Part shown: positions 4,259 to 44,740 of the stretch, one piece after another
Position numbering within the stretch: position 1 is the stretch's first letter
How the letters are laid out: each line of letters begins with the position of its first letter
Origin: Patescibacteria group bacterium
GTDB taxonomy: Bacteria; Patescibacteriota; Microgenomatia; UBA12405
NCBI GenBank assembly: GCA_018902845.1
Contig: JAHIPV010000020.1
Coordinates: forward strand, 74,810-138,809
Length of the DNA: 64,000 nt
Direction of reading: 5' to 3'
Notes under the pieces: generated by a model
Databases searched by the model: none
What the model saw: only the letters and a program-made list of their open reading frames with translations
Told to the model about the DNA's origin: nothing
Program-made: the position numbers and the translations under genes

Positions 4259-5404
4259 TCATTTAATCGGGCGACCGCAAGGGTCGCCCTTACGAATGTA
4301 TTTCGTGGCAATTGCGGGGTGACAGAGTCGGTAAACGGCCAGAGTTTGGAGAGCGGTCAGTTTCCATGAAAAAGCCCTGGCTCTTTTTTGTCCCAGTTTG
4401 GAAAATTTTTGTCTTAATTTTGGACTGGTCATGAGTTTTTTTAGGGCCTTTTTAATACTTTTAAGGGATTTTGGATTAAAAAATACTCCGTTATAGTCCA
4501 TAATTTCGGCCAAACTGCTTTGAAGACTATAACAAACCGGGCAACCCGATTGCATAGCCTCTAAGGGGGTAAGACCGAAGCCTTCGGCAAAAGATGGTTG
4601 GCAATAAAAAGTAGCCAGATTGTAGATTTTGGCAAGATCCGGATCAGGAACGAAGCCGGTAAGTGTTAAAAGCGGGTGGTGTGTTTTTTGGAGCCAGAGG
4701 AGATCTTGGTTCCAGGGATGATTAATTACGTTTTTGCGAGTAGCGGCAGAACCAACTATAACAAGTGGGTATTTTAAGGATAAACAGGCCCTAACAAGAT
4801 TGGGAATGTTTTTGTTCCAATTGATATCGCCAACATAAAGAACAAATTTTTTTGGCAGTTTGTATTTTTTCCTAATTTTTTCTAATTCTTTTGTGTTTTT
4901 GATTGATTTAAAAATTGGATCGGCTCCGAGATAAATAGGATAGATTTGGTCGGTTGGATATTTAGTGATTTTGTGTATTGCGTATTTTGAGAAGTGTGAA
5001 TCTGTGATAATATAATCGACTTTTTTTAGACGATTTTTTTGGATTAGCCAACGGACATTACCTTTTATGCCGACTGGATAGTGTTTTTTAAATTGGCGAG
5101 GGATAAGATCGTGGACTGTGACTATGGTAGGAACGGTTTTTTGAGGTAGGGTTAGTTGAAAAGGATCGAAATAAGGATAATGCAATAAATCAAAAGTTCC
5201 AATTTTTAATTTTTCCCCCTTCGGGTGACTTCGCTTCGCTTCGCAATTTTTAATTAGTTTTAAAGACCAGGATTTATATTCGGGGTTGGTTTTTAGTTCT
5301 CTTTGGAGATATTTGACTAGATTTTTGGTATAAAAACCAACTCCTCTTTTGGAATTGGCATTTTTTGTGGGAGAGATATCAATAGCGATTTTAAATTTTT
5401 TCAT
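4259..5404 (-). CDS. Glycosyltransferase family 4 (GT1-fold, RfaG-like)
   Basis: C-terminal EGFGLTPLEAMQSGCPV motif of GT4. The start is placed at MKKFKIAIDISP (ATG 5402..5404), overlapping the upstream stop. The last ~8 codons and the stop are supplied by the GC-hairpin repeat at 4266..4324. Confidence 0.75.
   Translation of the reverse strand: MKKFKIAIDISPTKNANSKRGVGFYTKNLVKYLQRELKTNPEYKSWSLKLIKNCEAKRSHPKGEKLKIGTFDLLHYPYFDPFQLTLPQKTVPTIVTVHDLIPRQFKKHYPVGIKGNVRWLIQKNRLKKVDYIITDSHFSKYAIHKITKYPTDQIYPIYLGADPIFKSIKNTKELEKIRKKYKLPKKFVLYVGDINWNKNIPNLVRACLSLKYPLVIVGSAATRKNVINHPWNQDLLWLQKTHHPLLTLTGFVPDPDLAKIYNLATFYCQPSFAEGFGLTPLEAMQSGCPVCYSLQSSLAEIMDYNGVFFNPKSLKSIKKALKKLMTSPKLRQKFSKLGQKRARAFSWKLTALQTLAVYRLCHPAIATKYIRKGDPCGRPIK
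4266..4324. repeat. Family-A repeat copy spanning the GT4 3' end and the GT2 5' region
   Basis: Hairpin core 4269..4289 with a ...cgtggcaattgcggggtgacag tail. Confidence 0.85.
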
Positions 5405-6288: not shown

Positions 6289-8085
6289 TCATTGTTTAGT
6301 ATATATTTTAAACGCTGGGAGGTCGTTTGTGAAATTGATGATATCAACCGGCTGAATTGGAACAGTTTCGTTTGAGGCTACTATAAGTGAATTTGAAGGA
6401 ATATTATCCCAATTAATTTTTTCAAAATGAATATTATCTATTTGTTTTACTGTAGAAAAACCAAATTTATCCGGAGGTGTTAATTTGATTTGGTTATGAA
6501 GGGCAGGTGGTGGATATTTTGAATAAAAAAGATACAGGATGTAAGGTTGATCGTATTTATCGGTTATATAGATGTTGCTAAAATTATTTTTTTGAGACTC
6601 TATATAAGGAATTAGCCGATCAAAACCTTGATTCCATGCAAAGGGATAGCGTTTGGGGGAGTGAATGTGATAAGAGCTAAGGTAGTAGGCTATCGAGTAG
6701 GAGTAAAAAATAACAAGAAAGAAGAGTATGGAGGGTTGTTTGTGAGTAAGACTTAAGAAAGATTGAATACCAAAAGCGGTGAGGATAGTGAGGGGGATGA
6801 CCATGGGAAGAGCGCGGAGAGCGGATGGGGCCTGGAAAGTGAGGGATGAAGCTATGGGTGAGAGAAAAAGCCAGAGAAAAATAAACTTATAATTTGTTTG
6901 AGTGGTTATGAGATCCCTCGACTTCGCTCGGGATGACAATAACTTCGCTCGGGATGACAATAACTTCGCTCGGGATGACAATAACTTCGCTCGGGATGAC
7001 AGCATAACTACAATGCCTAGAATTAAAAATGGGAGTTCTATTAAATGGAATTGACCTATTTCTGGGCTTTTGGAACGTGGGACCTCGTCTCCATTGATAA
7101 AAAGAAAGTTTAAATCAAAGTGGGAAAAGTATTTTTCGGCCCATGAAATTGCGTAAAGAACTCGGGCATTATGTGTGATTCTGTTAATCAGTGTTGTTTT
7201 TTGACTTTGGTTAAAGTGGTGATTTAATAATTCATTGGAACGCCACAGTGGACCTTGATCGGCTGTTATACCAACTCCGGAAAAACGAGTTGTACCGCCA
7301 TTCTTGAAGAAGGAAAAAACAACTGGCAGAGTGATAAGGATGCCAAAAAATAAAGAAAGGATAAATTTTTTATGAGATCCTTCGGCAAGCTCAGGATGAC
7401 GTAGTATTTTATTTCGATTAATAAAAAATAAAGATAAAGCAAGTAAGGGGGCGAAAATGCGGGCAGAGTGATAGGTGTATAAAGAAAGAGAAAGGAAAAG
7501 AGCGAAGAGATAAAGATTGTGTTTTCCCCCTGCGGGTGACTGCGCTGATGCTTGTTTTGTGTTAGTGTTTTTGTAGAAATAATAAGTGCCGATAATAATA
7601 AACGAGAGGGCGGTACAGGATTCCCAGGCACCGCGGGAAAAGTGGATGTGCCAGGGGTTAATAGAAAGCAAGAAAGCAGAAAGTAGAGAAAGTGTTAAAT
7701 TGTTTGTAATAAGAAGAACAAGTTTGTAAAGAAAATAAATTGAAAGAATTGAAAGAATTAGGTTAGGGAGGCGAACAGCAAGAGGAGTAAGGCCAAGGAT
7801 TTTGATAAAAGGAAGAGTAAGGTAAAAATATCCTCCGGGTTTGAAGTCACTAAATGATTTAAAATGAATGGGCCAAGGGATACTGTGTTCGTCTTTTCCG
7901 GTTTGGAGTAAAGAGTAAGCATTGTAGCCGATAGCGGCTTCGTCTGGATTGAGAGAAGGAAGATTGGAGATATTGTAGAAACGGAGAAGAATTGCAAGGA
8001 TGAGAATATATACGATAGGATTCTTCGCTACGCTCAGAATGACGACTGTTGGTTTGGTTTTGTTTGATTGATGATTGTTTGTCAT
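6289..8085 (-). CDS. GT39/ArnT-like GT-C membrane glycosyltransferase, a protein O-mannosyltransferase-like paralog
   Basis: N-terminal NPDEAAIGYNAYSLLQTGKDEH..KPGGYFY..LAVRLPNLILS (DE motif, loop 1 of GT39/GT83) with many TM helices. It contains in-frame repeats: 6908..7004 (SSRAKLL x4), 7374..7401 (RHPELAEGS) and 7525..7557 (QSPAGG). Confidence 0.7.
   Translation of the reverse strand: MTNNHQSNKTKPTVVILSVAKNPIVYILILAILLRFYNISNLPSLNPDEAAIGYNAYSLLQTGKDEHSIPWPIHFKSFSDFKPGGYFYLTLPFIKILGLTPLAVRLPNLILSILSIYFLYKLVLLITNNLTLSLLSAFLLSINPWHIHFSRGAWESCTALSFIIIGTYYFYKNTNTKQASAQSPAGGKHNLYLFALFLSLSLYTYHSARIFAPLLALSLFFINRNKILRHPELAEGSHKKFILSLFFGILITLPVVFSFFKNGGTTRFSGVGITADQGPLWRSNELLNHHFNQSQKTTLINRITHNARVLYAISWAEKYFSHFDLNFLFINGDEVPRSKSPEIGQFHLIELPFLILGIVVMLSSRAKLLSSRAKLLSSRAKLLSSRAKSRDLITTQTNYKFIFLWLFLSPIASSLTFQAPSALRALPMVIPLTILTAFGIQSFLSLTHKQPSILFFLVIFYSYSIAYYLSSYHIHSPKRYPFAWNQGFDRLIPYIESQKNNFSNIYITDKYDQPYILYLFYSKYPPPALHNQIKLTPPDKFGFSTVKQIDNIHFEKINWDNIPSNSLIVASNETVPIQPVDIINFTNDLPAFKIYTKQ
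6908..7004. repeat. Family-B repeat with its 21-bp terminal unit tandemly amplified ~3.8x, in-frame in the GT39 gene
   Basis: gagatccctcg + (acttcgctcgggatgacaata) x3 + a partial unit. Translated on the minus strand as SSRAKLL x4. Confidence 0.9.
7525..7557. repeat. Family-C repeat CCCCCTGCGGGTGACTGCG, in-frame in the GT39 gene (QSPAGG)
   Basis: Other copies at 9234..9267, 9379..9410, 9962..9990, 14315..14345, 35410..35450 and 44616..44648. Variants with a ..GACTTCGCTTCGC tail occur at 5214..5247 and 20934..20964. Confidence 0.85.
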
Positions 8086-8104: not shown

Positions 8105-9913
8105 TTATTTTGGGAGGTTATGAGATCCCTCCACTTCGGTCGGGATGACAGAAGTTTGGTAGGCATAGAAGGTGGAAATATTATTAATTGGAGATAATTG
8201 TATTAATTTAGAAAAATCAGTTGATTTATCTATACCAAGGCGAATTATTTCTTGGTGTGAATAAATTACCAAAGTATTTTGTTGGCTTTTGATGAATTGG
8301 AAATCTGGTGCATGAAAGATAATGTTGTCGAGTTTTTCAATTTTACCTGTATCCCCTACTTGGTTTTTTGTCAAAAATGCTTGTTGTTGATATTTAAGAG
8401 GTGGATATTTTGAATAAAAAAGATAGTAGATGTATGGTTGGTTGTAGAAATCGGTAAAATATATATTGTCATATTTATTTTGATTTTTGATTAAATATTG
8501 AATTGATTCTTCGTAGCCGTATAAAAAGTCTTGAGGTGATTTTTTGGTCATATGGTTTAGGTATAGATCTGAATAGTAAAAAAAAGAGAAAAAATAGACA
8601 GTAATGAGCAAAAAGTAAAAAGTAAAGAAAATTGATTTATGACCGTGCCTACCGGCAGGCAGGTTTATGAAATATGATTTATGAATAAAACTTAAAAAAG
8701 AATTGAGGCCAAGAGAAATAAAGAAAACTATGGGGATGGAGAGGGACATGGTGCGGGTGGCTTGGATGGAATCACGGGTAAGAGAAGCGGGAATGGGGGC
8801 GATGAGAAGCCAGAATAGGAAGAAGATGGAAAGCGTTGAAAACGAAAGTGAATGAAAAATTCCAATGAGAAGAAAAATTATACTGGGGTAAAGAATAACA
8901 CCGATATAAGGAGCTGAGTGGCGGGGATTTTGCCAATCGCCTTGGAAAATAAGAAATTTAGGCGAAAAGTGATTAAAATAGCGGTTTAAAAAATTTCGTA
9001 GAAAAAAGATTGGTTGATTGTAAAAAATTTGATAGTCCAGTTTATTGCCTTCGGAGATAATTGTTTCAGTTTCTTGTTGGCTTCTGGGATAAGAAAAAAG
9101 ACTTAAGACTTTTAGACGATTAGTGTCAGATGAAAATAAGAGGCCATAAATAATGGGAAGGGAAAGAAGAAAGAGAGGAAGAATGAAGTGTTTTAAAAAT
9201 TTATTTTTGTTTTTTTGTATTTTCCCCCTGCGGGTGACTGCGTTGACATTTGTTTTTAAATTAATTGAAAACAAAATAAATATCAAAAACAGACTGATCA
9301 TTTTGGCTGACTGATAGGTGTATAGAGAAAGTGAAAAGGCAAGAGACGAGAGTAAAAAATAATTGTTTTTTTTAATGTTCCCCCTGCGGGTGACTGCGTT
9401 TTCGCTTGTGATGGCTTTGAAAAAAAAATAGGAAGCCAGAATTAATTGGAATGTAAGAATATTGGTTTCCCAGGCTCCCCTACTGTAGTGAATGTTGTAT
9501 GGATTGAAGGCTAATATCAGAGCTGATATTAGAGCTAAGTTGCGTGTTTTCTTGTTTTTGGGATTAATTTGGGTGATGAGCAAATACAAAAACAAAGGTG
9601 TTAATGAGCCTAAAATAATTGATGGCAGACGGACTGAAAGCGGATTAAGGCCGAATATGGCCACAAATGGAACAGTAAGATAGATATAAAAACCTGGTTT
9701 GTAGTCTCCAAAAGATTTAAAAATTAATGGCAAGAATTCACCATATTCGTCTTTGCCGGTTTTGAGAATTGAATAAGCGTTATAGCCGATAGCAGTTTCG
9801 TCCCAAAGTAAGGGTGGATACGAATTTGTTTTGTAAATTCTTATAAAAAAAGCTGTGAGGGTGATTAAAAGAAGGATTATTTTGGTTTTTTTATTCATAG
9901 GCAATGATTTCAA
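8105..9913 (-). CDS. GT39/ArnT-like GT-C membrane glycosyltransferase paralog
   Basis: WDETAIGYNAYSILKTGKDEYGEFLPLIFKSFGDYKPGFY..SVRLPSIILG. Two copies of the CCCCCTGCGGGTGACTGCG repeat are read as NAVTRRG (9234..9267, 9379..9410). The C-terminus EVEGSH comes from the repeat at 8117..8150. Confidence 0.7.
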   Translation of the reverse strand: MKSLPMNKKTKIILLLITLTAFFIRIYKTNSYPPLLWDETAIGYNAYSILKTGKDEYGEFLPLIFKSFGDYKPGFYIYLTVPFVAIFGLNPLSVRLPSIILGSLTPLFLYLLITQINPKNKKTRNLALISALILAFNPYNIHYSRGAWETNILTFQLILASYFFFKAITSENAVTRRGNIKKNNYFLLSSLAFSLSLYTYQSAKMISLFLIFILFSINLKTNVNAVTRRGKIQKNKNKFLKHFILPLFLLSLPIIYGLLFSSDTNRLKVLSLFSYPRSQQETETIISEGNKLDYQIFYNQPIFFLRNFLNRYFNHFSPKFLIFQGDWQNPRHSAPYIGVILYPSIIFLLIGIFHSLSFSTLSIFFLFWLLIAPIPASLTRDSIQATRTMSLSIPIVFFISLGLNSFLSFIHKSYFINLPAGRHGHKSIFFTFYFLLITVYFFSFFYYSDLYLNHMTKKSPQDFLYGYEESIQYLIKNQNKYDNIYFTDFYNQPYIYYLFYSKYPPLKYQQQAFLTKNQVGDTGKIEKLDNIIFHAPDFQFIKSQQNTLVIYSHQEIIRLGIDKSTDFSKLIQLSPINNISTFYAYQTSVIPTEVEGSHNLPK

Positions 9914-13247: not shown

Positions 13248-14954
13248 TTAGTCGTTGGCTATCGAAGTTTTGTAGATATAGATGGCTGGGGTTTGGGAGG
13301 TGGCGTAGGGATAGTAGATGATTTTGTCTATTTTGGTTGAGACAGGGAATTCTTCCGGTTTGCCGATTAAAATTGTGTCTGGTTCTAAACTATCGGCGGC
13401 AAAAGTTAATTCTCTAAATATAAAATTATCCAGTTTGTATTCACCAAGCTGATCCAAGAAAGATAATCCCTTTTCGTCATATTTAAGCCAATTTATTGAT
13501 TCTTGCTGAGTTAGTTTTGGTGCAATTTTCATAAAAAAAGAAGCATAGGCTTGTGGTTCTGAGAGTTTGCGGGAGTAAATTATCTGAGAAGGTTTTTCTT
13601 TTTGAACGTATTTTATGGCTTCTTTATGACCATAAAGCATGCCGTGGGCTAGAATTTGATTGCCACGATAAAAATAAGTGCTAAGAAAATCTAGATTATA
13701 GAAAATAAATATTGATGCCAAGAGAATTAAAGTAGCTTTTTTGATTTGTCTTTGAGAGATTTTTTGGTAAAAAAGATAAAGACCGGTGACAGAAAAAATT
13801 TGAATAAATGGAATCATGATTGAAGCCCGGTTTCCAAACATTTGGCCCTTAGCTAGAGTGGCGGGAATTGGAGTTAAAAGGATTAGGGGGAGTAAAAAAA
13901 GTAGTTGGGAGTGATAGATATTGTGCTTTTTTGAAAAAATAGAAGTTAGTGAAACGAGAAGTCCTAAAAACAAAAGTGGATTAAGGACTCCAAAACTTGG
14001 AATCATGCCGTAGTCGGTTTCTGAGGCCCCGTTTGTAAGTAAAAACTGGGGAGAGAAATAAGAAAAATAGTTTTGGAAAAATATTTTTGTTGTGTAGATA
14101 AACTTGTTGTTAAAAATTCTGCTAATTTGAGTTGGCAGGCCATTTTGAATAGTTTGAAATTGTTGGTCGGAAACAGATTGCCACTTGTCGGTAGGGTTAA
14201 ATATGACAATATCCGAAGTTCTGGTGGAGTTGGAATTAAAAAAGTTGATAGTAAGAAATAAGAAAATGACAGAATAGAAAACTAAATATGGTTTGAGGTT
14301 TGAGAATATTTCTCCCCCTTCGGGTGACTGCGCCGTTGCTTGCCTTTTTTTGTAAACGGAGATTAATATAATAACCAGAGGGACAAGGGCTTTGGTGGAA
14401 TGGTAAGAGAAAGAAGCAAGAATTAAAAGAATGGCTGAAATGATTAAATTTTTACAAGATTTTGTTGAATTGGTAGAGCGCAGAAAAAAGAAAAGGCCAA
14501 GAGAAACAAAAAATACGTGAAGATTGGCTTCAAGAGCCAACCGAGACATTGGCAGGTGCCATGGTGAAAGACTTAAAAAAAGGGCAGAAAGAAGTGGAAT
14601 GGCGATTGTTCGTTTAAAGAGTTGTTTGGTAAAAAGAAAAACAGCAATAATTGAGAGAGATGAAAATAGGGCATTAGGAAAACGGGCGGCAAAAGGTGTT
14701 AGGCCGAATAATTTTATTGATGGAATCATTAGATAAGTTTGTAGGGGCGGTTTAAAGTCACCAAAGGAACGTAAAGATAATGGCCAGGGAATTCCCCACT
14801 CGTCTTTGCCGGTGTTTAAAAGCGAATAAGCAGTATAGGCTTGAGCTAATTCATCGGGACTGTAGGAACTTGGTAGAGATTCAAGTTTGTAGAATCTAAG
14901 AAAAGTACCCAAAATAAATATTAAAAATAAAATGATGTATGATTTGCGATTCAT
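13248..14954 (-). CDS. GT39/ArnT-like GT-C membrane glycosyltransferase paralog
   Basis: SPDELAQAYTAYSLLNTGKDEWGIPWPLSLRSFGDFKPP..AARFPNALFS. There is an in-frame QSPEGG repeat at 14315..14345. Confidence 0.7.
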   Translation of the reverse strand: MNRKSYIILFLIFILGTFLRFYKLESLPSSYSPDELAQAYTAYSLLNTGKDEWGIPWPLSLRSFGDFKPPLQTYLMIPSIKLFGLTPFAARFPNALFSSLSIIAVFLFTKQLFKRTIAIPLLSALFLSLSPWHLPMSRLALEANLHVFFVSLGLFFFLRSTNSTKSCKNLIISAILLILASFSYHSTKALVPLVIILISVYKKRQATAQSPEGGEIFSNLKPYLVFYSVIFLFLTINFFNSNSTRTSDIVIFNPTDKWQSVSDQQFQTIQNGLPTQISRIFNNKFIYTTKIFFQNYFSYFSPQFLLTNGASETDYGMIPSFGVLNPLLFLGLLVSLTSIFSKKHNIYHSQLLFLLPLILLTPIPATLAKGQMFGNRASIMIPFIQIFSVTGLYLFYQKISQRQIKKATLILLASIFIFYNLDFLSTYFYRGNQILAHGMLYGHKEAIKYVQKEKPSQIIYSRKLSEPQAYASFFMKIAPKLTQQESINWLKYDEKGLSFLDQLGEYKLDNFIFRELTFAADSLEPDTILIGKPEEFPVSTKIDKIIYYPYATSQTPAIYIYKTSIAND

Positions 14955-15040: not shown

Positions 15041-16792
15041 TTATAATTTTTGGATTATTTGGGCGAAGATTAAATTGTTTGGTAAATAAACTGTATCGAT
15101 TGTTTTAAAACCATCTGGTGGGTTTTTGCTTAGATCCCAGTCTCCAGGAATATCCAGAAGCTGGAAAAGAACAAAAGTATCTGAGCTTTGGGCTATTTTA
15201 GCAATTTTATCTATAGTTGATGTGGCGTTCCAGTTTGTGACGAAAAAGATTTGGTCGTTTAATTTGAAGCCGGATAAATCTTGGTAAAAATTATCAACAG
15301 TTTTGTCAGTAAAATTTGATTGATGGAGTGATTGTGGCGGATATTTGCTATAAAAAAGATAATGAATTAAAGAGGTATAGTTGCTGTTGCTGATAAAAAG
15401 ACGGTTGGTGTTTGATGGTATGGATTGCATAAGTTGTTGATAGCCATATTGCCATGATTGAAAAGAATCTTTGGGATAGCGAACAAAATAATTGCGATAA
15501 TAAAAAATCATATTGATTGATAACGATGTGATTATAAGTATGGTAATAATTTTTGATTTGTTGGTGATGGCAAGAAAGCCTTTGGAGACAAAATAGATTA
15601 GTGGTGGCAGTATCAAGAAAAGTCGAGTGGCTTGAGTACCGCCGTCTATGGTAAGACTGGTGGGTATAGGAGCTATTAGTAGCCAAAAAAACATAAGTTG
15701 ATTAGCTTTGCCGTTTTTTTTGTTTTTATTAATGGAAAAAAATCCAAACAGTAGGAGTGGTAAAAAGGTGATTGGCAGAAGACCAAAATCTGATGGACTG
15801 TGGCGAGGGTTAGGATCGCCGGAACGAAAAAGAAAATTGAAAGAAAGACTTGATAAATAATTATTGGTAAAAATATTTAGTGTTTTTGTCAGTTTGTTAT
15901 AAAAAATTCTTTCTGTTTCAGAATCAGTAGCAGAAAAGCCCGTTCTTTTTGTAATTATTTCTTCTGTTATTTTTGGGTTATTAAAGATACCAATGAGTTT
16001 GAAACGATTGGCGGCTGAACCGGAAAGAATGTTTTTGGCAAGAGGAAATAAAAGGAATAGGGCCAAAAAAGCTGGTGCTTGTTTTTTAGTTGCTTGTTTT
16101 TTGATTTCTTTAAAATTTGTGAGAATGAGAAATATAACAAGAAGTGGTGTGAAAATATTGGCGGTGTTATAAGTGTAAAAAGATAGTGAAAAAATAAAAA
16201 TGGAGAGATAAAGGTAGGGGGAAAATGATTGGTTTTTTTTGAGGGATTTGTAAAAATAATAAGTGCCGGAGAGGATGAGAGTGAGGAGAAGAGAAACTTC
16301 AAAGGCGGTGCGACTGTAGTGGAAGTGCCAGTTTGATAGGCCTAGGAATACAGAAGAAAGAAGAGCCAGATTAGAGTTTTTGGTTTGGATTTTGACTAAT
16401 TTATATAAATAAACAATGGCTAGAATGGCGAAAACAACCGAAGGTAAACGAACAGCAATTGGATTAAGCCCAAAGAGTAATACAAATGGAATGGTGGTGT
16501 ACATGAGTAAAGGAGCTCGAGATTCGGCCAAAGAGTCTATATAAAAAGGTAATAAATTTCCTTTGTAGTCTTTGGCGGTTTTTAAAAGAGAATAGGCATG
16601 ATATCCAACGTCGGCTTCGTCGCCAAAAAGTGGGAGAATGTCTAGTTTGTAAAGTCTTAAAAAGATAGATATAAAAAAAATGGTAATGAGAAAAAATTTT
16701 ATGAAGATGTTGAATAGGTTTCTGGGGGATCCTTCGTCCGATGAATCGGACTCAGGATGACGAATAGGAAAAAATTTTATTTTTTGTGACAT
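15041..16792 (-). CDS. GT39/ArnT-like GT-C membrane glycosyltransferase paralog
   Basis: GDEADVGYHAYSLLKTAKDYKGNLLPFYIDSLAESRAPLLMY..AVRLPSVVFA. The start is chosen at the internal Met (MSQKIKF..) because the upstream part overlaps the GT2 gene. The N-terminal RHPESDSSDEGS comes from the repeat at 16725..16762. Confidence 0.65.
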   Translation of the reverse strand: MSQKIKFFPIRHPESDSSDEGSPRNLFNIFIKFFLITIFFISIFLRLYKLDILPLFGDEADVGYHAYSLLKTAKDYKGNLLPFYIDSLAESRAPLLMYTTIPFVLLFGLNPIAVRLPSVVFAILAIVYLYKLVKIQTKNSNLALLSSVFLGLSNWHFHYSRTAFEVSLLLTLILSGTYYFYKSLKKNQSFSPYLYLSIFIFSLSFYTYNTANIFTPLLVIFLILTNFKEIKKQATKKQAPAFLALFLLFPLAKNILSGSAANRFKLIGIFNNPKITEEIITKRTGFSATDSETERIFYNKLTKTLNIFTNNYLSSLSFNFLFRSGDPNPRHSPSDFGLLPITFLPLLLFGFFSINKNKKNGKANQLMFFWLLIAPIPTSLTIDGGTQATRLFLILPPLIYFVSKGFLAITNKSKIITILIITSLSINMIFYYRNYFVRYPKDSFQSWQYGYQQLMQSIPSNTNRLFISNSNYTSLIHYLFYSKYPPQSLHQSNFTDKTVDNFYQDLSGFKLNDQIFFVTNWNATSTIDKIAKIAQSSDTFVLFQLLDIPGDWDLSKNPPDGFKTIDTVYLPNNLIFAQIIQKL

Positions 16793-17670
16793 TTTGAAGA
16801 TAACCAGATAATAAGTGTTAACAGATAATGCTTCAAAAGACCGTGGTAAATTTTTGAGCTGGGAATAAGTCGTCGCCATTGATTTTCGGAATTGCTTAAA
16901 CTTTTTCCACTAAGGCCGTGGTAGTGAATAACTTTGCATTGTGGATAACAATAAACTTGCTTGACTGATTTGTGTATCCGGCGACAAAGGTCGAGATCTT
17001 CAAAATACATAAAATATTTTTCATTCCATTTGCCGAGTTGATCAAAGAGTTTTTTTGATATAAGAAAAGCACCGCCAGAAATGGCGTAAACAGAGGAAGG
17101 GGTTGTATCCTTGGGTATATTTTTAGTAAAGGCATATTTTTGCCCAAGCCAAAATTCTTTAAATGCGTTTAAAATAGATTGTTTTGGAAAAACAGAGGCT
17201 TGTGGGGTTTTGTTTGGATTTAAAAATTGGGGGCCAATAGCCCCAACTTTGGGACTTTTTTGAAGAAATTGAAGCATATTGACAATAGAACTATCAACTA
17301 ATTTCATGTCTGAGTTAAGAAAAAGTAAATAGTCGCCTTTGGCTTTTTTAGAGGCTATATTGTTTCCTTTGGCAAAACCGAAATTCGAAGAATTTTGAAT
17401 TAATTGGATTTTTACGTCATTCTGAGGCGAAGCCGAAGAATCTCGTTGTTGTTTTTGCCGATTCCGAGGGGATCCTTCTCCCCCTTGCGGGTGATCAGGA
17501 TGACGATGTATAAGGGTTTTTTTGATTTGATTAACAGAATTGTCTGTGGAGGCGTTGTCGGCAACGATGATTTCGTGTTTAATGTCTTTGATATATTTAA
17601 AAATTGATTTAATGCAGTTTATAGTGGCTTTGGGTGTGTTCCAGTTGAGAATGATGATGCTAAGGTCCAT
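16777..17670 (-). CDS. Glycosyltransferase family 2 with an in-frame ~90-nt repeat insertion
   Basis: IIILNWNTPKAT..IVADNASTDNS..LFLNSDM GT2 motifs. The insert at 17415..17505 encodes HRHPDHPQGGEGSPRNRQKQQRDSSASPQND. Confidence 0.75.
   Translation of the reverse strand: MDLSIIILNWNTPKATINCIKSIFKYIKDIKHEIIVADNASTDNSVNQIKKTLIHRHPDHPQGGEGSPRNRQKQQRDSSASPQNDVKIQLIQNSSNFGFAKGNNIASKKAKGDYLLFLNSDMKLVDSSIVNMLQFLQKSPKVGAIGPQFLNPNKTPQASVFPKQSILNAFKEFWLGQKYAFTKNIPKDTTPSSVYAISGGAFLISKKLFDQLGKWNEKYFMYFEDLDLCRRIHKSVKQVYCYPQCKVIHYHGLSGKSLSNSENQWRRLIPSSKIYHGLLKHYLLTLIIWLSSKCHKK
17415..17505. repeat. Long family-B variant (CGTCATTCTGAGG..GAAGAATC + GGGGATCCTTC..CAGGATGACG) in-frame in a GT2 gene
   Basis: cgtcattctgaggcgaagccgaagaatctcgttgttgtttttgccgattccgaggggatccttctcccccttgcgggtgatcaggatgacg. 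Near-identical copies occur at 24335..24450 and 63373..63452. Confidence 0.9.
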
Positions 17671-20048: not shown

Positions 20049-20965
20049 TCTTTAAACTTGTTAAAGATTTGTTTGTCTGTTAGTTTAGGAAAGACGATAG
20101 GGGGAAGGTGATTTTTAATTTGTCTTTTGGCAGCACGAATGATTTTTATATAATTGGGGCCAAAAGGAACTCTTAATGCGATGGCAATTTTGTTTGATGT
20201 TAAAAGTTTTGGATCTGTAATGTTTCTTAAGACAGTTAGCAATCGATTTCTTTCTTTAACATAAATCAAGAAGCGTTTGGGTAATTTTGACATAGTGCTT
20301 TGGTGTTTGTGATAGATTTTTGATTTTGGTTCCCAAATTAGCGTGTAACCTGATTTCCAGGCTCTATAACCTAAATCTAAATCCTCTGAGTAGCAGGGGT
20401 GATAAATATTATCAAAACCTCTTAACTTGGTAAAAATTGACTTTCTGATTATAGAGCCGCCTCCGGAAAGCCAGGCCGTAATGTGGGCTTTTGAGATTTT
20501 TTTTCCCGGTTCGTATTGCAAATAACCTTCCTTCCAAAAAATTCTGGCCCAATTTTCATTGCCTATTTCAGCAAATCCAACTCCAAAAAGTTTTGGATTT
20601 TTGAAATGGTGGAGTGAGTTTTTAATGTAATTTTTGGTAGGAGTGATGTCGTTGTTTAATAAAACCACTAATTCGCCTTTGCATTTACCGACGGCCATAT
20701 TTGAGTTAATAACGAATCCTTGGTTCTTTTTTTGGGTTAATAGTTTTATTTGTGGATGTTTTTTTTGCAGTTTTTTTAAAAAAATGTGGCTTTTGTCGGT
20801 TGATGCGTCGTCGGCGATAATAATTTCGGAGACTTGGGGACTATATTTGATTACTTTGGGAAGATTTTTTTTTAGGAGTTTTAGTCCGTTGAAGTTAGTT
20901 ACAATGAGGGAGATGGAAAAATTATGATTTTTTCCCCCTGCGGGTGACTTCGCTTTGCTTCGCAT
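20045..20965 (-). CDS. Glycosyltransferase family 2
   Basis: FSISLIVTNFNG..IIADDASTDKS..LLNNDI GT2 motifs. The N-terminal MRSKAKSPAGGK is derived from the repeat at 20934..20964. Confidence 0.75.
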   Translation of the reverse strand: MRSKAKSPAGGKNHNFSISLIVTNFNGLKLLKKNLPKVIKYSPQVSEIIIADDASTDKSHIFLKKLQKKHPQIKLLTQKKNQGFVINSNMAVGKCKGELVVLLNNDITPTKNYIKNSLHHFKNPKLFGVGFAEIGNENWARIFWKEGYLQYEPGKKISKAHITAWLSGGGSIIRKSIFTKLRGFDNIYHPCYSEDLDLGYRAWKSGYTLIWEPKSKIYHKHQSTMSKLPKRFLIYVKERNRLLTVLRNITDPKLLTSNKIAIALRVPFGPNYIKIIRAAKRQIKNHLPPIVFPKLTDKQIFNKFKE

Positions 20966-20968
20966 TTT

Positions 20969-22147
20969 TTAATTTATTATTTCTAATAATTTTTTTTCAA
21001 AGTTTTGTTTGGAAAATTTAGCGGAATCTTGTTGTGTTTGAACGGATAATTGTTCCATTAATTGCGGAGAACCGATAAGAAGTTGGGTTTTGGAAACCAA
21101 TTCGTCTATATCGCTCCAAAGGAAACCGTTTTTTCTTTCATTGATTATTTCTGGTAAACCACCCTTTTTTACCACAATTGGAATTGTTCCGGAAGCCATG
21201 GCTTCGACTACGGCCATACCAAAATGTTCGGTATTTTGGGGATTAATATTTTCGTCTACTCCAAAGCCTGCCGCATGCCAATAAATTTTGCTTTGGGAAT
21301 AAATTTTTTTGAGGGTGTCAAAATTTGGACCGATTAAAAATTCAATGGGAAAATTTTTGGCTTCATATTTTAAGTGTTTTAGGTAATTATTAAGCTCAGG
21401 TTTTTTTATAGAACCGCCGACCAAAATTAATTTCCAGTCTTTGTTGTTTTGATTTTGACTAAGTTTTTTGAAGGCTTTGATAAGAATATCCTGCCTTTTT
21501 TTGTTTAATATATTGTCAAATCTGCCAACCGATAAAATAATGTTTTCTTTTTTACCGGAGGCTGAAAATTTATCTGTATCTATGGGGGGGTATAACAGAG
21601 AGGATTTGTGGTGAAAGGTTTTTTTGAATTGATCTTGAGTGAAGATAGAATTGCAAATAATGTTTTTGTTTAAAAACAGTTTAAGTTTGTTGGCTATTTT
21701 GGTTTGAAAACTGAATTTGTTGGTAAAAGGAACTTGGCAGTGAAGAATGTTTTTTTTGGCAAAAAGAATTGGAATACTGCCATCGCTTAGATAGAAAAAA
21801 AGATTGTAATTGCGAGTAATCTTAAGCTTGTTTAGTAGATGTTTAACTTTTCCTAAGTTTGTACGTGTTTCTTTTTGTGTACTATTGATTTTTTTTAGTT
21901 GGCTGTGATCTTGGATTAAATCGATGTTTTGTTGGGGTTGACTAAAAATGTCGGGAACCAGATTGAGGTTTTCTAAATTTAGGGCAAATCTATCTTGGGC
22001 CTTGTCAATTAAATCTTTGTCTTTGGACCAAAATATATCAACTTGATAATTATGTTTTAAGAGAATTTCGGCGATAGTGAGCATGTAGCGCTCCCCTCCG
22101 CCGAGAGTGTCTAAGTAAGGATCGTATATGCCGACTTTTAATGGCAT
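20969..22147 (-). CDS. Glycosyltransferase family 4 (GT1-fold)
   Basis: C-terminal NTEHFGMAVVEAMASGTIPIV GT4 EX7E-type motif. Directly upstream lie a 4 x 8-bp tandem repeat and a TTAAGTATATATG box. Confidence 0.75.
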   Translation of the reverse strand: MPLKVGIYDPYLDTLGGGERYMLTIAEILLKHNYQVDIFWSKDKDLIDKAQDRFALNLENLNLVPDIFSQPQQNIDLIQDHSQLKKINSTQKETRTNLGKVKHLLNKLKITRNYNLFFYLSDGSIPILFAKKNILHCQVPFTNKFSFQTKIANKLKLFLNKNIICNSIFTQDQFKKTFHHKSSLLYPPIDTDKFSASGKKENIILSVGRFDNILNKKRQDILIKAFKKLSQNQNNKDWKLILVGGSIKKPELNNYLKHLKYEAKNFPIEFLIGPNFDTLKKIYSQSKIYWHAAGFGVDENINPQNTEHFGMAVVEAMASGTIPIVVKKGGLPEIINERKNGFLWSDIDELVSKTQLLIGSPQLMEQLSVQTQQDSAKFSKQNFEKKLLEIIN

Positions 22148-22164
22148 GAGTTAAGTATATATGC

Positions 22165-22196
22165 TGGATGACTGGATGACTAGATAACTGGATAAC
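22165..22196. promoter_or_regulatory. Tandem repeat, 4 x 8 bp of the same octamer family, upstream of the GT4 ATG
   Basis: ggatgact ggatgact agataact ggataact, preceded by gagttaagtatatatgct, which is nearly identical to the ftsX box. Confidence 0.6.
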
Positions 22197-22222
22197 TCGA
22201 AAGAAAGATAAAAATTAGGTAT

Positions 22223-23029
22223 TTATTTTATTTTTTGTTGGAGTTCGTAGAGGCGGGCGTAGATGATAAAAGTATTGAAAGTTTCAAAAATTACTGATAT
22301 CCAGCCAACTGTGCCGTCTTTCCACGCTTGTTGTTTGATTAAGCGAGTGTAGAAAGTAGTAAGCATCATACGGAAAAAACGCCACCAGACAACGGGAGGG
22401 TGGTTGGTTTTGTACAGAGCTTTGGCTTCCAATTCTGTCCATGTTATTGTTTTTTCTAACATTGAACTAAGATCAGAATGAGTGAAGTGGAGCAGGTCTG
22501 ATTTTAGATGGCCGATTTGACCTTTTATGATTGGCTCTTCGTGAACAGTTCCCTGCCATTTTTTTAATTTATCTTTTTTGAATAGTCTTTTGACATAATC
22601 GGGATAGGATCCGCCGTGTTTAACTCTTTTGCCTAAATAATGATTGGCTCTGGGAATGGCGTAGTAGTTGTGCGAGGCACGCCTCGCCCTTACACTTATC
22701 GTTTTTTGAATTTCTCTCTTTAACTGGGGCGTAACTTGTTCGTCTGTATCTATGTAAAGTATCCAGTCATTGGTGGTTAATTTTAGTCCCATGTTTCGCC
22801 ATTTGGCGTAGTGCTTGCCGTATTGATCGGTAGTAGTAATTGTTTTGGCTTGAGGAACAAGTTTTTGGGCAATTTTTTTGGAATTATCTGTAGAATTGGC
22901 AAAAACAATTATTATTTCGTTGGCCCATTTAATAGATTTGATGCAGTCCCCTATTGTGTTTTCAAAATTGCCACAGATGATGATGGTGGTTAGCGCGTTG
23001 TTGTGCTGGTTTTTTGTTTGTTTTGTCAT
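22223..23029 (-). CDS. Glycosyltransferase family 2
   Basis: LTTIIICGNFENTI..YIDTDEQ motifs; paralog of 5404..6213. The start codon is embedded in the 'tgtcat' terminus of the composite leader element 23024..23175. Confidence 0.7.
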   Translation of the reverse strand: MTKQTKNQHNNALTTIIICGNFENTIGDCIKSIKWANEIIIVFANSTDNSKKIAQKLVPQAKTITTTDQYGKHYAKWRNMGLKLTTNDWILYIDTDEQVTPQLKREIQKTISVRARRASHNYYAIPRANHYLGKRVKHGGSYPDYVKRLFKKDKLKKWQGTVHEEPIIKGQIGHLKSDLLHFTHSDLSSMLEKTITWTELEAKALYKTNHPPVVWWRFFRMMLTTFYTRLIKQQAWKDGTVGWISVIFETFNTFIIYARLYELQQKIK

Positions 23030-23175
23030 TTCGACTCCTTCGGCTGTACTCAGGATAAACTCCGTGGAGAAATCCCTGCCTGCCGGCAGGCAGGTCTGAA
23101 TTTATTTCAGAAATCCGCCTTTAGCGGATATCTCAGACAAGCTGAGAGATCCCTCGACTGCGCTCGGGATGACAA
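23024..23175. repeat. Composite ~150-nt 5' leader element abutting the start codon of GT2 22223..23029
   Basis: tgtcatttcgac...ggagaaatc...tgaatttatttcagaaatccgcctttagcggatatctcagacaagctgagagatccctcgactgcgctcgggatgacaa. Confidence 0.85.
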
Positions 23176-23182
23176 CTACTTT

Positions 23183-23458
23183 TTAATTACAAAGATCTTT
23201 GAACTTTGGATTTAATTTTTTAATTAAACTAATTTTTTTGTTTCTGTTCCAGTTTTTAATTTGTTTTTCTCTTGCTATTGCTTCATTAATGTTGTTGTAT
23301 TCTTCAATATAAATTGGTTTATTTATATTATATTTGGCAGTAAAGCTATTATGTTTTTTGAGTTTGTGTTCGAAATATCTTTTTTCTAGGTTGTTGGTAA
23401 CACCAGTATACAGAGTACCTGAATTATTGGTAAGAATGTATAAAAAATATGATTTCAC
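23183..23458 (-). CDS. Stand-alone GIY-YIG nuclease-domain protein (UPF0213/YhbQ-like)
   Basis: YFLYILTNNSGTLYTGVTNNLEKRYFEHK matches the GIY-YIG core. At 91 aa it is flanked on both sides by repeat elements. Confidence 0.65.
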   Translation of the reverse strand: MKSYFLYILTNNSGTLYTGVTNNLEKRYFEHKLKKHNSFTAKYNINKPIYIEEYNNINEAIAREKQIKNWNRNKKISLIKKLNPKFKDLCN

Positions 23459-23585
23459 TGATTAATTATACCCGTAAAGCTTATTTGGATGGTTATGAGA
23501 TCCCTCGGCTACGCTCGGGATGACAAAAGAGCTACGCTTCCTTCAAAGATGGACACATTGTAATTCGCAATGACAGGAGGTGGGA

Positions 23586-24626
23586 TTATTTCCAGCGGCC
23601 TTTGTTAAAGCGCTGAAGATAAAAGTCGATGATACCGCGTTTTTCCCAAGAATATTTGGAACTAAATAATTTTTCTACTGATTGGCGAATAATGGCCAGT
23701 TTGACTCGAAATGAAGCATGGCGCATGGCAAAAAGAAGTCGGTTTCTGGAGATAAAATAGTGATGCAAGTTTCCGCCCGTACCCGATGATTGAGCGTTTA
23801 AATGCCAAATTTTTGAATCAGGAATATAAGCAAGTTTATATCCTGCCTTTTTGGCCTTTTGGCAAAAGTCAATATCTTCCAGATACATGAAATATTTTTT
23901 ATCAAACAAGCCAATTTCTTTGAATAATTTTGATTTGACAAGCATACAACATCCGGAAATAAAGTCTATTTTAGTAGTGAATTTATTGAATTGACCTTTG
24001 TCAATTTGATCGACTCCAATGTTTGAGCCCAAGATATTGTCCCAATCCATGTAACCGCCGGCAGACCAGATGATATTACCCAGCTCATTTTTTTTGTATC
24101 TATTTTTGTGAAATTCGTAACCTTTGGCAAAATAGATTTTGGGTCCCAATATAGCCAGTTTGGGATTTTTTTGGGCGGATTTTAATAAAATTTGAAGAAA
24201 ATCAGGATCAACCAAAACGTCATTGTTGATTACTAGAATATAGTCAAAGTTTTCTTTTAAGGCTTGTTTGATGCCAAAATTGTTGCCGTTGGCATAACCC
24301 AAGTTTGAAGAGGTTTGGAGAATTTGGATTTTTACGTCATTCTGAGGCGAAGCCGAAGAATCCCGTTGTTGTTTTTGCCGATTTCGAGGGGATCCTTCTT
24401 CGCCGGTCGGCGAATCAGGATGACGGTGGGAAGGATCAGGATGGCGGTGTGTGAATTTATTAAATAATTCGATTGAATTATCGGTGGAGGCGTTGTCAAC
24501 CAAAAAGATTTTGTAGTTAAAAGAAGTATGCTTAATTTTAAGAAGAGATTTAATAGTTTGGATGGTGAGCGCGGGCTGATTCCAGTTAAGAACGATGATG
24601 GCAATTTTAGTTTTATTTTTTGTCAT
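23586..24626 (-). CDS. Glycosyltransferase family 2 with an in-frame repeat insertion
   Basis: IAIIVLNWNQPALT..LVDNASTDNS..VINNDV motifs. The start ATG at 24624..24626 is the terminus of the composite leader element. The insert at 24335..24450 encodes HRHPDPSHRHPDSPTGEEGSPRNRQKQQRDSSASPQND. Confidence 0.75.
   Translation of the reverse strand: MTKNKTKIAIIVLNWNQPALTIQTIKSLLKIKHTSFNYKIFLVDNASTDNSIELFNKFTHRHPDPSHRHPDSPTGEEGSPRNRQKQQRDSSASPQNDVKIQILQTSSNLGYANGNNFGIKQALKENFDYILVINNDVLVDPDFLQILLKSAQKNPKLAILGPKIYFAKGYEFHKNRYKKNELGNIIWSAGGYMDWDNILGSNIGVDQIDKGQFNKFTTKIDFISGCCMLVKSKLFKEIGLFDKKYFMYLEDIDFCQKAKKAGYKLAYIPDSKIWHLNAQSSGTGGNLHHYFISRNRLLFAMRHASFRVKLAIIRQSVEKLFSSKYSWEKRGIIDFYLQRFNKGRWK
24335..24450. 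repeat. Long family-B variant in-frame in a GT2 gene (paralog of the 17415..17505 insert)
   Basis: The same ~60-nt 5' half as 17415..17505, followed by ggggatccttcttcgccggtcggcgaatcaggatgacggtgggaaggatcaggatggcg. Confidence 0.9.
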
Positions 24627-24728
24627 TTCGACCAAAGTGGAGAAATCTCTGAATTTATTTCAGAAATCCGCTTTTGGCGGATATCTCAGACAAGCCGAGA
24701 GATCCCTCGACTTCGCTCGGGATGACAA
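24621..24728. repeat. Composite ~108-nt 5' leader element; its 'tgtcat' terminus supplies the GT2 start codon
   Basis: tgtcatttcgaccaaagtggagaaatctctgaatttatttcagaaatccgcttttggcggatatctcagacaagccgagagatccctcgacttcgctcgggatgacaa. Confidence 0.9.
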
Positions 24729-24730
24729 GC

Positions 24731-25663
24731 TCAAAAGTTTTTGGTTAGGCGGTTTAGTAAATGGCGAAATTTAATAAAGACTGATTTAAATATATTACCG
24801 GCTTTTTCATCAGCAAAATATTTAGCAAACCAATGACTATATTCATAGGTGGCCTGCTGACTGGCGGAAACAAATGATTCTTTGGGTAGATTTTTTTCTT
24901 TAAAGCCCCTTTTTTCCCAAATTCTTATATAAATAAGACATTCAGAAAAAGCTTGAAGTAGGGCAAAAACAAGTCCGTGAATACCGTCTTTGTATCCCTG
25001 AGAGGCAAAAAAACGGCTGTTGAATTCTTGGGTAGGTTTTAGAATAAAATCGGAAAGTTTAAGTTTGTGTTGTTTAGAAATTAATTCTTCCGCTTGTACT
25101 TTTGTATAACGAAGCATGCGGTTAAGATAACTGGTTATAGTGGGATAGTTGTTGTGTCTAATGGCTAGTTTTTCTGTGTCTAGTATCGTGATTCCATTGC
25201 CTTTTGTTTCAGGTTGACTGTGTATTTCTTTGTTCCATTTGACAGCGCCTTTTTTGAAAAAGCGAATTAAGTAGTCAGGCCATGAACCTGAGTGGCGCAT
25301 CCATTTATTAAAAACTATATTTTTTCTCGGGATTCTGACAAAATCGACATCGGTGCGGTTGGTAATTTTTTGAAGTTCTCTTTTGAGAGTTTTGGTAATA
25401 TATTCGTCGGGATCAAGTAATAGTATCCATTTTCCTTTTGCTTTTGATAGAGCAAAATTTCTGGCCGGTTCAACACATTTCATATAACGATGTTGAAAAA
25501 CTTTGGCGTTGTGACTTTTGGCAATTTCGACAGAATTGTCGTTAGAGTGCATATCTATAAGAATGATTTCATCGGCAAAATTTTTGACAGATTTGAGACA
25601 TTTAGAAAGATACTTGGCATCGTTGTATGTATTGATGATTACTGATATTAAAGGTTTGGGCAT
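24731..25663 (-). CDS. Glycosyltransferase family 2
   Basis: ISVIINTYNDAKYL..ILIDMHSNDNS..LLLDPDE motifs. Confidence 0.75.
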   Translation of the reverse strand: MPKPLISVIINTYNDAKYLSKCLKSVKNFADEIILIDMHSNDNSVEIAKSHNAKVFQHRYMKCVEPARNFALSKAKGKWILLLDPDEYITKTLKRELQKITNRTDVDFVRIPRKNIVFNKWMRHSGSWPDYLIRFFKKGAVKWNKEIHSQPETKGNGITILDTEKLAIRHNNYPTITSYLNRMLRYTKVQAEELISKQHKLKLSDFILKPTQEFNSRFFASQGYKDGIHGLVFALLQAFSECLIYIRIWEKRGFKEKNLPKESFVSASQQATYEYSHWFAKYFADEKAGNIFKSVFIKFRHLLNRLTKNF

Positions 25664-28945: not shown

Positions 28946-29067
28946 CGTCATTCTGAATGAAATGAAGAATCCCGAGGGGATCCTTCGCTACGCTCAGGAT
29001 GACGGTGTTTTGACCGACGGGATTGCCACGCTTCGCTTCCTCCAGAGGCGGACACGGCGCAATGACA
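28946..29067. repeat. Composite family-B repeat encoding the C-terminus of the PTPS-related protein
   Basis: cgtcattctgaatgaaatgaagaatcccgaggggatccttcgctacgctcaggatgacgg ... gggattgccacgcttcgcttcctccagaggcggacacggcgcaatgacaag. Confidence 0.85.
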
Positions 29068-39358: not shown

Positions 39359-39376
39359 GATTTAAGTATATATGTT

Positions 39377-39424
39377 GGATGACTAGATGACTAGATGACT
39401 GGATGACTGGATGACTGGATGACT
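39377..39424. promoter_or_regulatory. Variable-number tandem repeat, 6 x 8 bp ([A/G]GATGACT), in the ftsE-ftsX intergenic region 19 nt upstream of the ftsX ATG
   Basis: ggatgact agatgact agatgact ggatgact ggatgact ggatgact, preceded by the conserved box gatttaagtatatatgtt. Confidence 0.6.
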
Positions 39425-44655: not shown

Positions 44656-44696
44656 ATGAGGTAGTATAGCAGTTTGATTTAAACTCTGCTTGTTGC

Positions 44697-44740
44697 GGGC
44701 GACCGCAAGGGTCGCCCCTACAAAAATTTTTAGAGTGATG
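44697..44740. repeat. Family-A hairpin repeat, intergenic
   Basis: gggcgaccgcaagggtcgcccctacaaaaattttt. Confidence 0.85.

Follow-up and report, generated by a model that had tools for sequence, protein, structure and literature searches.

In-frame CGTC-tagged REP dimers in two glycosyltransferase genes and uvrA of a Patescibacteria genome, and a GIY-YIG nuclease gene as a candidate partner

A stretch of 64,000 nucleotides from a Patescibacteria group bacterium (GenBank assembly GCA_018902845.1, contig JAHIPV010000020.1, positions 74,810 to 138,809 of the forward strand; the whole stretch is called the window below) carries three similar inserts nested in the open reading frames (ORFs) of three genes, namely two paralogous GT2 glycosyltransferase genes (GT2-A and GT2-B) and uvrA. 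It was found that each insert consists of two inverted hairpin units of the repetitive extragenic palindrome (REP) kind with CGTC tags. The tags point outward, one unit is of an ATCCT type and the other of an ATTCT type, and a short spacer lies between them. The best explanation is that the inserts belong to the superfamily of CGTC-tagged REPs, here in a host of the Candidate Phyla Radiation (CPR), and I put the probability of this explanation as a whole at about 80%.

The CGTC-tagged REPs were described by Di Nocera, De Gregorio and Rocco (2013, BMC Genomics 14:522; PMC3733652). By their definition, a unit has an unpaired CGTC (or TGTC/CCTC) tag, a stem of 8-9 bp starting with A-T and T-A, a loop of 4-5 nt and an unpaired 3-nt tail (consensus CCA), and the units form inverted dimers, often heterodimers. 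The majority of the REPs lie downstream of ORFs, while intragenic copies encode 20-30 amino acids (PMC3733652). Insertions in uvrA/uvrB/uvrC-type repair genes were reported in the same paper, those in uvrA being from Thioalkalivibrio and O. terrae.

The three inserts and their host genes

A near-identical insert in GT2-A, GT2-B and uvrA had been noticed in a first-pass annotation of the window, and it proved to be real and far above chance. The 28-mer CGTCATTCTGAGGCGAAGCCGAAGAATC is present at 17415 and 24335 with no mismatch and at 63374 with one mismatch. The window has no other match at three mismatches or fewer, and none was expected by chance in 100 shuffles. The dimers and their hosts are as follows.

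16777-17670 (-): GT2-A glycosyltransferase gene, 297 aa (Pfam), host of the first copy
17415-17505: REP dimer in GT2-A, encoding RHPDHPQGGEGSPRNRQKQQRDSSASPQND; ATTCT-type unit 17415-17444 (+), spacer 17445-17468, ATCCT-type unit 17469-17505 (-)
23586-24626 (-): gene of the GT2-B glycosyltransferase, which carries the second copy; 346 aa counted from the ATG at 24626
24335-24425: REP dimer in GT2-B, with units and spacer as in the GT2-A copy (74/77 nt identical)
24426-24456: partial 21-nt tandem duplication of the end of the GT2-B dimer, adding a second HRHPD peptide (HRHPDPS/HRHPDSP)
62355-64000 (-): C-terminal 547 codons of uvrA, host of the third copy; the gene continues past the window
63374-63452: REP dimer in the uvrA linker; unit 63374-63403 (+), unit 63425-63452 (-)
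63352-63372 (+): remnant end (TGTCATCGCGGGATGA...) of an older TGTC-type unit, adjoining the uvrA dimer

The true length of the element is 91 nt in GT2-A, 91 nt in GT2-B and 79 nt in uvrA. The limits first given for the GT2-A copy were correct, while the GT2-B copy, first given as 24335 to 24450, ends at 24425 and is followed by the partial duplication. All three copies are in frame within minus-strand ORFs, and the families of the host proteins were confirmed by Pfam searches, in which the GT2 domain (PF00535) is split by the insert at about profile position 50. The place of the insert in the GT2 proteins is between the VDNASTDNS motif and helix 45-54 on one side and strand 88-92 on the other, upstream of the NxG(F/Y) motif. 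It had been described as following the DxD region, but the NSD/NND motif, which is of the DxD type, is downstream of the insert. Of the six frames, four are free of stop codons in the 91-nt copies of GT2-A and GT2-B, and the frame read in all three copies is the most hydrophilic one. Also, the peptide SPRNRQKQQRDSSASPQND had been ascribed to all three genes; it is encoded by the two GT2 copies only, since the uvrA copy encodes GSHSYQNQQRDSSASPQND and has only QQRDSSASPQND in common with them. An example of a predicted insert-derived peptide is RHPDHPQGGEGSPR.

The source is a metagenome-assembled genome, and repeats are classic sites of misassembly. Thus, the inserts could be artefacts of assembly or binning. 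However, nine contigs that come from independent assemblies at NCBI, ENA and JGI, JAHIMY010000028.1 of GCA_018895715.1 among them, carry a gene for the identical GT2-A protein. Moreover, every reading frame is kept, and the same 28-mer occurs in cultured isolates such as Edaphobacter modestus DSM 18101. The nine independently assembled contigs exclude an assembly artefact, and the chance that the inserts are artefacts of either kind is negligible. By its UvrA, the organism falls near Candidatus Shapirobacteria.

The exact 28-mer was found at more than 118 loci in many phyla, with occurrences in Patescibacteria, Cyanobacteriota, Acidobacteriota isolates, Planctomycetota, Omnitrophota, Bacillota and Rickettsiales. 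Its usual partner across phyla is the GAGATCCTTCG...GCTCAGGATGAC unit. In viral contigs it occurs only once, and thus provides no evidence for phage carriage between hosts.

Hairpin structure and covariation of the units

The insert is an imperfect palindrome of 79-91 nt with a variable centre, whose outer arms are CGTCATTCTGAG/CTCAGGATGACG and whose inner arms are GAAGAATC/GGATCCTTC. The 12-nt outer arms serve as terminal inverted repeats with one G·T pair. Compared with shuffled sequences, the inserts have fold z-scores from -1.9 to -5.1. A unit starts with the CGTC tag and continues with the stem AT(T/C)CT-GA-G(G/C), a GAA-type loop, the return stem (G/C)C-GA-AG(A/G)AT and a CYC tail. The AT-initiated stem has nine positions and includes tandem G·A pairs. 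The loop of the basic units is GAA or CGAAG, and the 3-nt tail is CCC, CTC or CTT, as against the published consensus CCA. In about one third of the units, the loop has grown to 12-25 nt by nested hairpins. These include the right-hand units of the GT2 copies: the loop of the right-hand ATCCT-type unit in GT2-A holds the nested hairpin CCCCCTTGCGGGTG, while the GT2-B dimer has an unlike one, TCGCCGGTCGGCGA. The combination of ATTCT and ATCCT units is seen in the dimers at 17415, 24335, 28946, 58852, 60595 and 63374.

Covariation was analysed with 92 distinct 28-nt units collected from the window and other genomes, for which complementarity at the variable positions was not demanded. Stem columns 5-13 pair with columns 17-25, and positions 10-11/19-20, the tandem G·A/A·G, were left out of the scoring. 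The paired cells amount to 96.3%, whereas slid controls reach 51% at most. Cells with double changes number 79 versus 15.9 in shuffles, and covariation is found in five of the seven scored pairs. The high degree of pairing together with the double changes indicates that the hairpin is the conserved feature of the units. Tag columns 2-4 (GTC) are invariant across the 92 units, and all of the window units counted below begin with CGTC or TGTC, although the tag was partly imposed by the search, as the unit detector demanded GTCAT.

Rfam gave nothing at the gathering threshold for the whole window, and only a chance-level match at E<=1 for the region 22950-24800. An intein and a self-splicing intron were considered and rejected: the inserts are 79-91 nt long, as against at least 130 aa or at least 200 nt, they have no splicing motifs, intein blocks or Rfam match, and they are read through in frame.

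Spread of the units and the peptides they encode

A detector based on the tag, the AT-stem and the GA pairs found 41 non-redundant tagged units in the window (42 raw detections), as compared with 0.6 expected in shuffled sequence. Thus, the first-pass annotation was right in seeing a module shared by three genes, but it missed that the module is a CGTC-tagged REP dimer and that the window has dozens of relatives of the same superfamily. Twenty-one of the 41 units lie inside ORFs, all in stop-free frames. The 13 genes concerned are a radical-SAM gene, six PMT/PMT_2 genes, GT2-A, GT2-B, uvrC, uvrA, a 632-aa ORF without a Pfam match (28994-30892) and the gene of a PTPS-related membrane protein. 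Since ORFs make up 93% of the window, the units are depleted from coding sequence, and yet they are very frequent there. Single units within ORFs are always in the sense orientation; nine of them read RHPE..EGS, seven read VILS..KDP (mostly in membrane proteins) and one reads SSRAK. The repair gene uvrC has a dimer of its own.

60595-60688: CGTC/TGTC dimer, in frame in uvrC (RHSESPAGRRRIPLESKIPTGSFGRKLSQDD)

In addition, uvrC (60185-61651) has a second in-frame REP, a GTAG-type unit near 60413-60468, by which the match of the UvrC RNase H domain is split in two. At 6921-7001, inside a PMT gene, a 21-nt partial TGTC unit end occurs four times in tandem and is translated as LSSRAKL x4. Across the whole window, almost all single REP units have the tag at their 5′ end when the coding strand is read. 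On the best explanation, the REP family has spread through intergenic DNA and into the coding sequence of this Patescibacteria genome.

As in the palindromic elements of Rickettsia (RPEs), the insertions are in frame, in unrelated genes and at tolerant positions. An AlphaFold model of GT2-A (41 sequences; mean predicted local distance difference test score (pLDDT) 89.5, predicted template modelling score (pTM) 0.86) has residues 55-87 as a low-confidence coil between the helix and the strand mentioned above. Residues 3-177 and 217-544 of the UvrA fragment can be aligned with solved UvrA structures. The unaligned stretch, residues 178-216, holds the 26-residue insert (183-208), and the insert therefore sits in a linker. 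The UvrA linker after G(Q/K)YLSGK is hypervariable across Microgenomates (orthologues P0004-P0120), and peptides characteristic of other repeat families (LPPLSKGGAGG, VETHHEASLPL and AKQSEFS) turn up there in other genomes. The same is true of the GT2-A loop, which reads VIARNEETKQS in orthologues P0182 and P0201. These peptides suggest that the UvrA linker and the GT2-A loop are long-standing hotspots or permissive sites.

Is the shared peptide itself a selected functional module, such as a linker or an interaction motif, rather than a by-product of selfish DNA? In favour of this, the three genes all read one hydrophilic frame (RHP[DE]...EGS...QQRDSSASPQND), even though four frames out of six are open. 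However, these DNA units are just as frequent in the spaces between genes, other hosts use another frame (VILS..KDP), the conserved features are hairpin pairs of DNA or RNA and not residues, and the peptide is predicted to be disordered. A search with the 33-aa insert peptide found 0 matches among 1.84 billion representative proteins, which would point the same way if the query were not so short and low in complexity as to make the result uninformative. A functional module is therefore very unlikely. Rather, an intragenic copy would survive only if its net length keeps the frame, if the frame is free of stop codons and if the ~30 hydrophilic residues fall in a tolerant loop or linker, and this filter would leave the same peptide in unrelated proteins.

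Age of the inserts and turnover of occupied sites

The first-pass annotation had offered two explanations, an insert older than the GT2 duplication and a preferred target site, had taken the uvrA copy to argue for active transposition or recombination of the module, and had proposed a comparison of divergence inside and outside the insert. Inside the insert, GT2-A and GT2-B are identical at 80/90 nt (89%) and 27/30 aa (90%), whereas outside it they are identical at only 379/726 nt (52%) and 90/242 aa (37%). When the swapped nested hairpin is set aside, the identity of the insert rises to 74/77 nt (96%). The insert is missing from about 120 orthologues of each of the two GT2 genes. Each paralogue has its own orthologues in Shapirobacteria and relatives, with 47-57% identity. 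Among the 120 UvrA matches listed, 118 are without the insert, and the remaining two (P0001 and P0002), which are 100% identical to the query, carry it; the UvrA orthologues have a short hypervariable linker at this position. Thus, as judged from these comparisons, the focal inserts are younger than the GT2 duplication and represent one young subfamily. The proposed test speaks for a mobile or recombining module and rules against the older origin. Inheritance from before the duplication would account for the same loop, frame and right-hand junction in both paralogues, but an insert of that age would by now differ as much as its flanks do and would be expected in the orthologues. I regard it as extremely unlikely.

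The common site in the two GT2 genes had been read as a possible sign of target preference, which it need not be. The 12 nt that follow the element, GTAAAAATCCAA (VKIQ), are identical in both GT2 genes and missing from the sister orthologues. This fits short-tract conversion between the paralogues, which are 6.9 kb apart: one GT2 gene may have been hit, and the other may have received the insert by ectopic gene conversion, in which case the shared position tells nothing about targeting. The 18 nt after the identical flank match at only 11 positions, spacer and units are nearly the same in both copies, as given above, and a conserved DNASTDNS-coding stretch about 40 nt upstream provides homology. 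On the other hand, the left flank has no shared tract, the nested hairpin of the right unit is wholly different between the copies, a DNA identity of about 52% between the paralogues is low for homologous recombination, and VK(I/L) is frequent in the orthologues, so that the identity of the flank may partly reflect protein constraint. Conversion thus has somewhat less than even odds in my estimate. Because the shared flank is missing from the sister orthologues, copying from paralogue to paralogue appears as likely as two independent hits.

Loci L004-L008 of a sister genome are syntenic with the window at 80-87% DNA identity. The following sequences of the window are missing from the sister.

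16703-16780 (-): in-frame gain of 78 nt at the 5′ end of a PMT_2 gene
24620-24727: TGTC dimer of 108 nt between the upstream gene's stop codon and the GT2-B start
23033-23587 (-): insertion of 555 nt with TGTC units, a GIY-YIG ORF and a TGTC dimer, in that order

The PMT_2 gain comprises a single CGTC unit (16726-16762) and ~25 nt (window 16690-16810 versus L007 4822-4900). The start codon of GT2-B is supplied by the terminal ATGACA of the 24620-24727 dimer. The intergenic gains show a microhomology of ~5 nt (GAAAT), and the native sequence at two gain sites (AAATGAC) resembles a unit end. At four sites, namely the uvrA linker, the GT2-B loop, the GT2-A loop and intergenic 20914-20969, both genomes are occupied by different REP types. 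For instance, the uvrA site of the sister has a complete but different TGTC dimer, and a remnant hairpin is found when the GT2-A loop sites are compared. As the same sites carry other REP types in the sister, the alignment suggests overwriting of pre-occupied REP sites rather than de novo hits. The GT2 pair was probably produced by copying from one paralogue into the other, or by overwriting of older REPs that occupied those loops.

A GIY-YIG nuclease gene between inverted units

The 555-nt insertion contains a small gene.

23183-23458 (-): stand-alone GIY-YIG nuclease ORF, 91 aa, UPF0213 type (PF01541, E 1.4e-13; PDB 1zg2, 1ywl)

This ORF is bracketed by TGTC units at 23497-23525 and 23146-23174/23024-23076 with their tags outward. 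Among the loci retrieved with the REP 28-mer, there are six GIY-YIG homologues, and all six are bracketed, making 7/7 with the window copy. Here, bracketing means a sense unit no farther than 120 nt upstream and an inverted one no farther than 260 nt downstream, an arrangement found for 6 of 1132 control ORFs. An independent sample consists of 80 metagenome loci retrieved by GIY-YIG protein alignment alone. In these loci, the density is ~4 units per kb within 200 nt of the GIY-YIG gene and 0.1-0.2 per kb beyond 500 nt. The bin from -100 to 0 has 35 sense and 10 antisense units, the bin from 0 to +100 has 28 inverted and 9 direct units, and the bins beyond 500 nt have about 0-2 units each. The sense unit lies at a median of 27 nt upstream of the gene and the inverted unit at a median of 15 nt downstream. 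A unit lies within 300 nt of the gene in 40 of 60 well-flanked loci, and 22 loci have one on either side. The stem types of the flanking units vary from locus to locus. Among 32 GIY-YIG homologues on viral contigs, units accompany only the three closest, and the 29 more distant ones are without units. Residues Y7, Y17, R27, H31, E64 and N83 are invariant in the GIY-YIG alignment; they correspond to the catalytic set of GIY-YIG nucleases such as I-TevI.

The arrangement makes the GIY-YIG gene a candidate for the missing mobilising enzyme of the CGTC REPs. My proposal, which is tentative and falls a little short of an even chance, is that the CGTC/TGTC REPs are non-autonomous derivatives of a minimal mobile element of ~360-400 bp, in which two inverted tagged hairpins enclose a 90-aa UPF0213-type GIY-YIG gene. 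Such an element would be a ‘REPtron’ in which a GIY-YIG nuclease takes the place of the tyrosine transposase. Copying would start with cleavage at the tagged hairpin, once a nuclease has recognised it, and would go on by templated repair or by re-insertion. The best candidate for that nuclease would be the small GIY-YIG protein sitting between such units.

The main rival for the nuclease step is homing of the GIY-YIG gene into REP dimers. The gene would then be a selfish cassette, or the REPs may merely have gathered around it, and the CGTC REPs would owe their movement to a different enzyme, either a REP-associated tyrosine transposase (RAYT) or some other transposase, or to recombination and slippage during replication alone. 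The classical role of GIY-YIG enzymes is that of homing endonucleases. Insertion sequences (ISs) that target REPs specifically are known (PMC1525189). In the window, REPs cluster and nest in one another, and no unit could be detected within 300 nt of the gene at 20 of the 60 well-flanked GIY-YIG loci. However, the spacing of the flanking units is tight and polar, the only units within 4-6 kb in several genomes are those flanking the GIY-YIG gene, and the type of these units covaries from locus to locus. Moreover, published searches did not find a transposase gene beside CGTC REPs (PMC3733652). Taken jointly, these alternatives to a mobilising GIY-YIG nuclease keep a substantial minority of the probability.

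Several points weigh against the interpretation given here. Translation of the inserts is an assumption made from the sequence. Target-site duplications, for which the first-pass annotation had proposed an inspection, were not found in the flanks of the three focal copies, as there is no close empty site. Nor is there a clean empty site or a transposition intermediate for any of them; their nearest relatives are only 69-89% identical (protein), and the sites are already altered. The sole clean gain, that in the PMT_2 gene, is flanked by direct repeats of 16 nt (AAAATTTTTTCYYATT) and 7 nt (CCTATTC), and no known transposase fits them. The sole GIY-YIG gene of the window is flanked by units of the TGTC/ATCCC subtype, not by CGTC units of the ATCCT/ATTCT types, and the 20 loci without units count here as well. 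No RAYT was found among the scanned ORFs of the window, the 64 kb of the genome that this search covered.

Pfam revealed no transposase domain in 33 scanned proteins of the window. Searches of the literature library found no relevant paper linking GIY-YIG with REPs or MITEs (miniature transposable elements with inverted repeats) and none on REPs, RPEs or REP doublets forming hairpins (REPINs) in CPR bacteria. A full-text search with the terminal 11-mers returned primer noise only.

Other repeats and features of the window

Other repeat families are also present. A second family is a classical GTAG-tagged REP (GTAGGGGCGACCCTTGCGGTCGCCCG) with ten exact copies of its 26-mer core and one 96% copy. 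Both the radical-SAM ORF (763-2388) and uvrC read it in frame as VGATLAVAR. In PMT-family genes, a third hairpin family (TCCCCCTGCGGGTGACTGCG...) is translated in frame to give QASAQSPAGG or NAVTRRG; a hairpin related to it is nested in the loop of the GT2-A copy. Blocks of tandem 8-nt repeats (TGGATGAC/TAGATAAC), followed by a conserved ...TATATAC TTAA(C/A)TCATG, lie directly upstream of three minus-strand gene starts and are possibly a shared promoter or 5′ leader.

2012-2037, 4268-4293, 38398-38423, 44696-44721, 47475-47500: copies of the GTAG family
48724-48749, 52762-52787, 58941-58966, 60163-60188, 60420-60445: further copies of the GTAG family
5201-5255, 7512-7566, 9220-9289, 9366-9420: copies of the third hairpin family
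14300-14354, 20920-20974, 35406-35475, 44601-44655: further copies of the third hairpin family
22145-22200, 39356-39419, 48596-48659: tandem 8-nt repeat blocks

Nearly all genes of the window are on the minus strand, yet the plus-strand GC skew is strongly positive throughout (0.17-0.35). At positions 3901-4245, sister locus L005 has a 114-aa minus-strand gene between two glycosyltransferase genes, where the window has only 56 nt (22160-22215).

Implications and comparison with known systems

The read-through of palindromic selfish DNA as protein is a known phenomenon, and it is now extended to the CPR. The load is unusually heavy, as about one quarter of the genes in the window have REP-derived peptides, including uvrA, uvrC and six PMT-family glycosyltransferase genes. 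Thus, extremely reduced genomes can tolerate invasive repeats. For the annotation of CPR proteomes, it matters that REP-derived peptides inflate apparent protein novelty and split domain matches. The association with the GIY-YIG gene is the more consequential point, since it is bracketed, polar and found across phyla and makes the question of the missing transposase testable. If the proposal of a GIY-YIG REPtron is true, it would supply an enzyme for the CGTC superfamily, including RPE-4 and RPE-6 of Rickettsia, and it could explain both the presence of the same hairpin in many phyla and the overwriting of older REPs at occupied sites.

MITEs with in-frame fusions, such as ERIC, BOX and QMITE1 of Coxiella (reviewed in PMC10969869), are likewise short non-autonomous inverted repeats read through in ORFs. 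In contrast to them, the focal copies lack a target-site duplication, and no IS with a DDE transposase and matching terminal repeats was found in the window. The RPEs (Ogata et al. 2000, 2002) are palindromic selfish DNA that is in frame in unrelated housekeeping genes, at surface or linker positions that folding allows, and the focal inserts are likewise in tolerant positions. RPE-1 is ~150 bp long and Rickettsia-specific, whereas the elements here are dimers of 60-95 nt or single units of 28-37 nt, and the host is a free-living or epibiotic CPR lineage. The link to the RPEs rests on the equation of RPE-6 of R. conorii with CGTC-1 and of RPE-4 with CGTC-4 (PMC3733652).

In the REPIN/RAYT system (Bertels and Rainey 2011; Nunvar et al. 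2010), an inverted REP doublet also folds as one long hairpin, and the proposed driver is a nuclease or transposase gene in single copy with the same REPs on its flanks, called a ‘REPtron’, the term used for the element proposed above. The tag in that system is GTAG and the enzyme is an IS200/IS605-type HUH tyrosine transposase, whereas the focal element has CGTC tags and the family here has CGTC/TGTC tags and a 90-aa GIY-YIG nuclease as the candidate. The closest likeness is to the CGTC REPs themselves, which share the tag, the A-T/T-A start of the stem, a short loop in the case of the basic units, a tail of 3 nt, though of another sequence, the inverted dimers that are often heterodimers and the intragenic peptides of 20-30 amino acids. 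The present REPs differ in that Patescibacteria are outside the five phyla of PMC3733652, in the CYC tail (instead of CCA), the tandem G·A/A·G stem pairs and the many loops with nested hairpins, in the very high intragenic load of 13 genes in 64 kb, and in the bracketing of a GIY-YIG gene, which is absent from that account. Thus, the finding is an extension of this known kind of REP and not a new kind of element.

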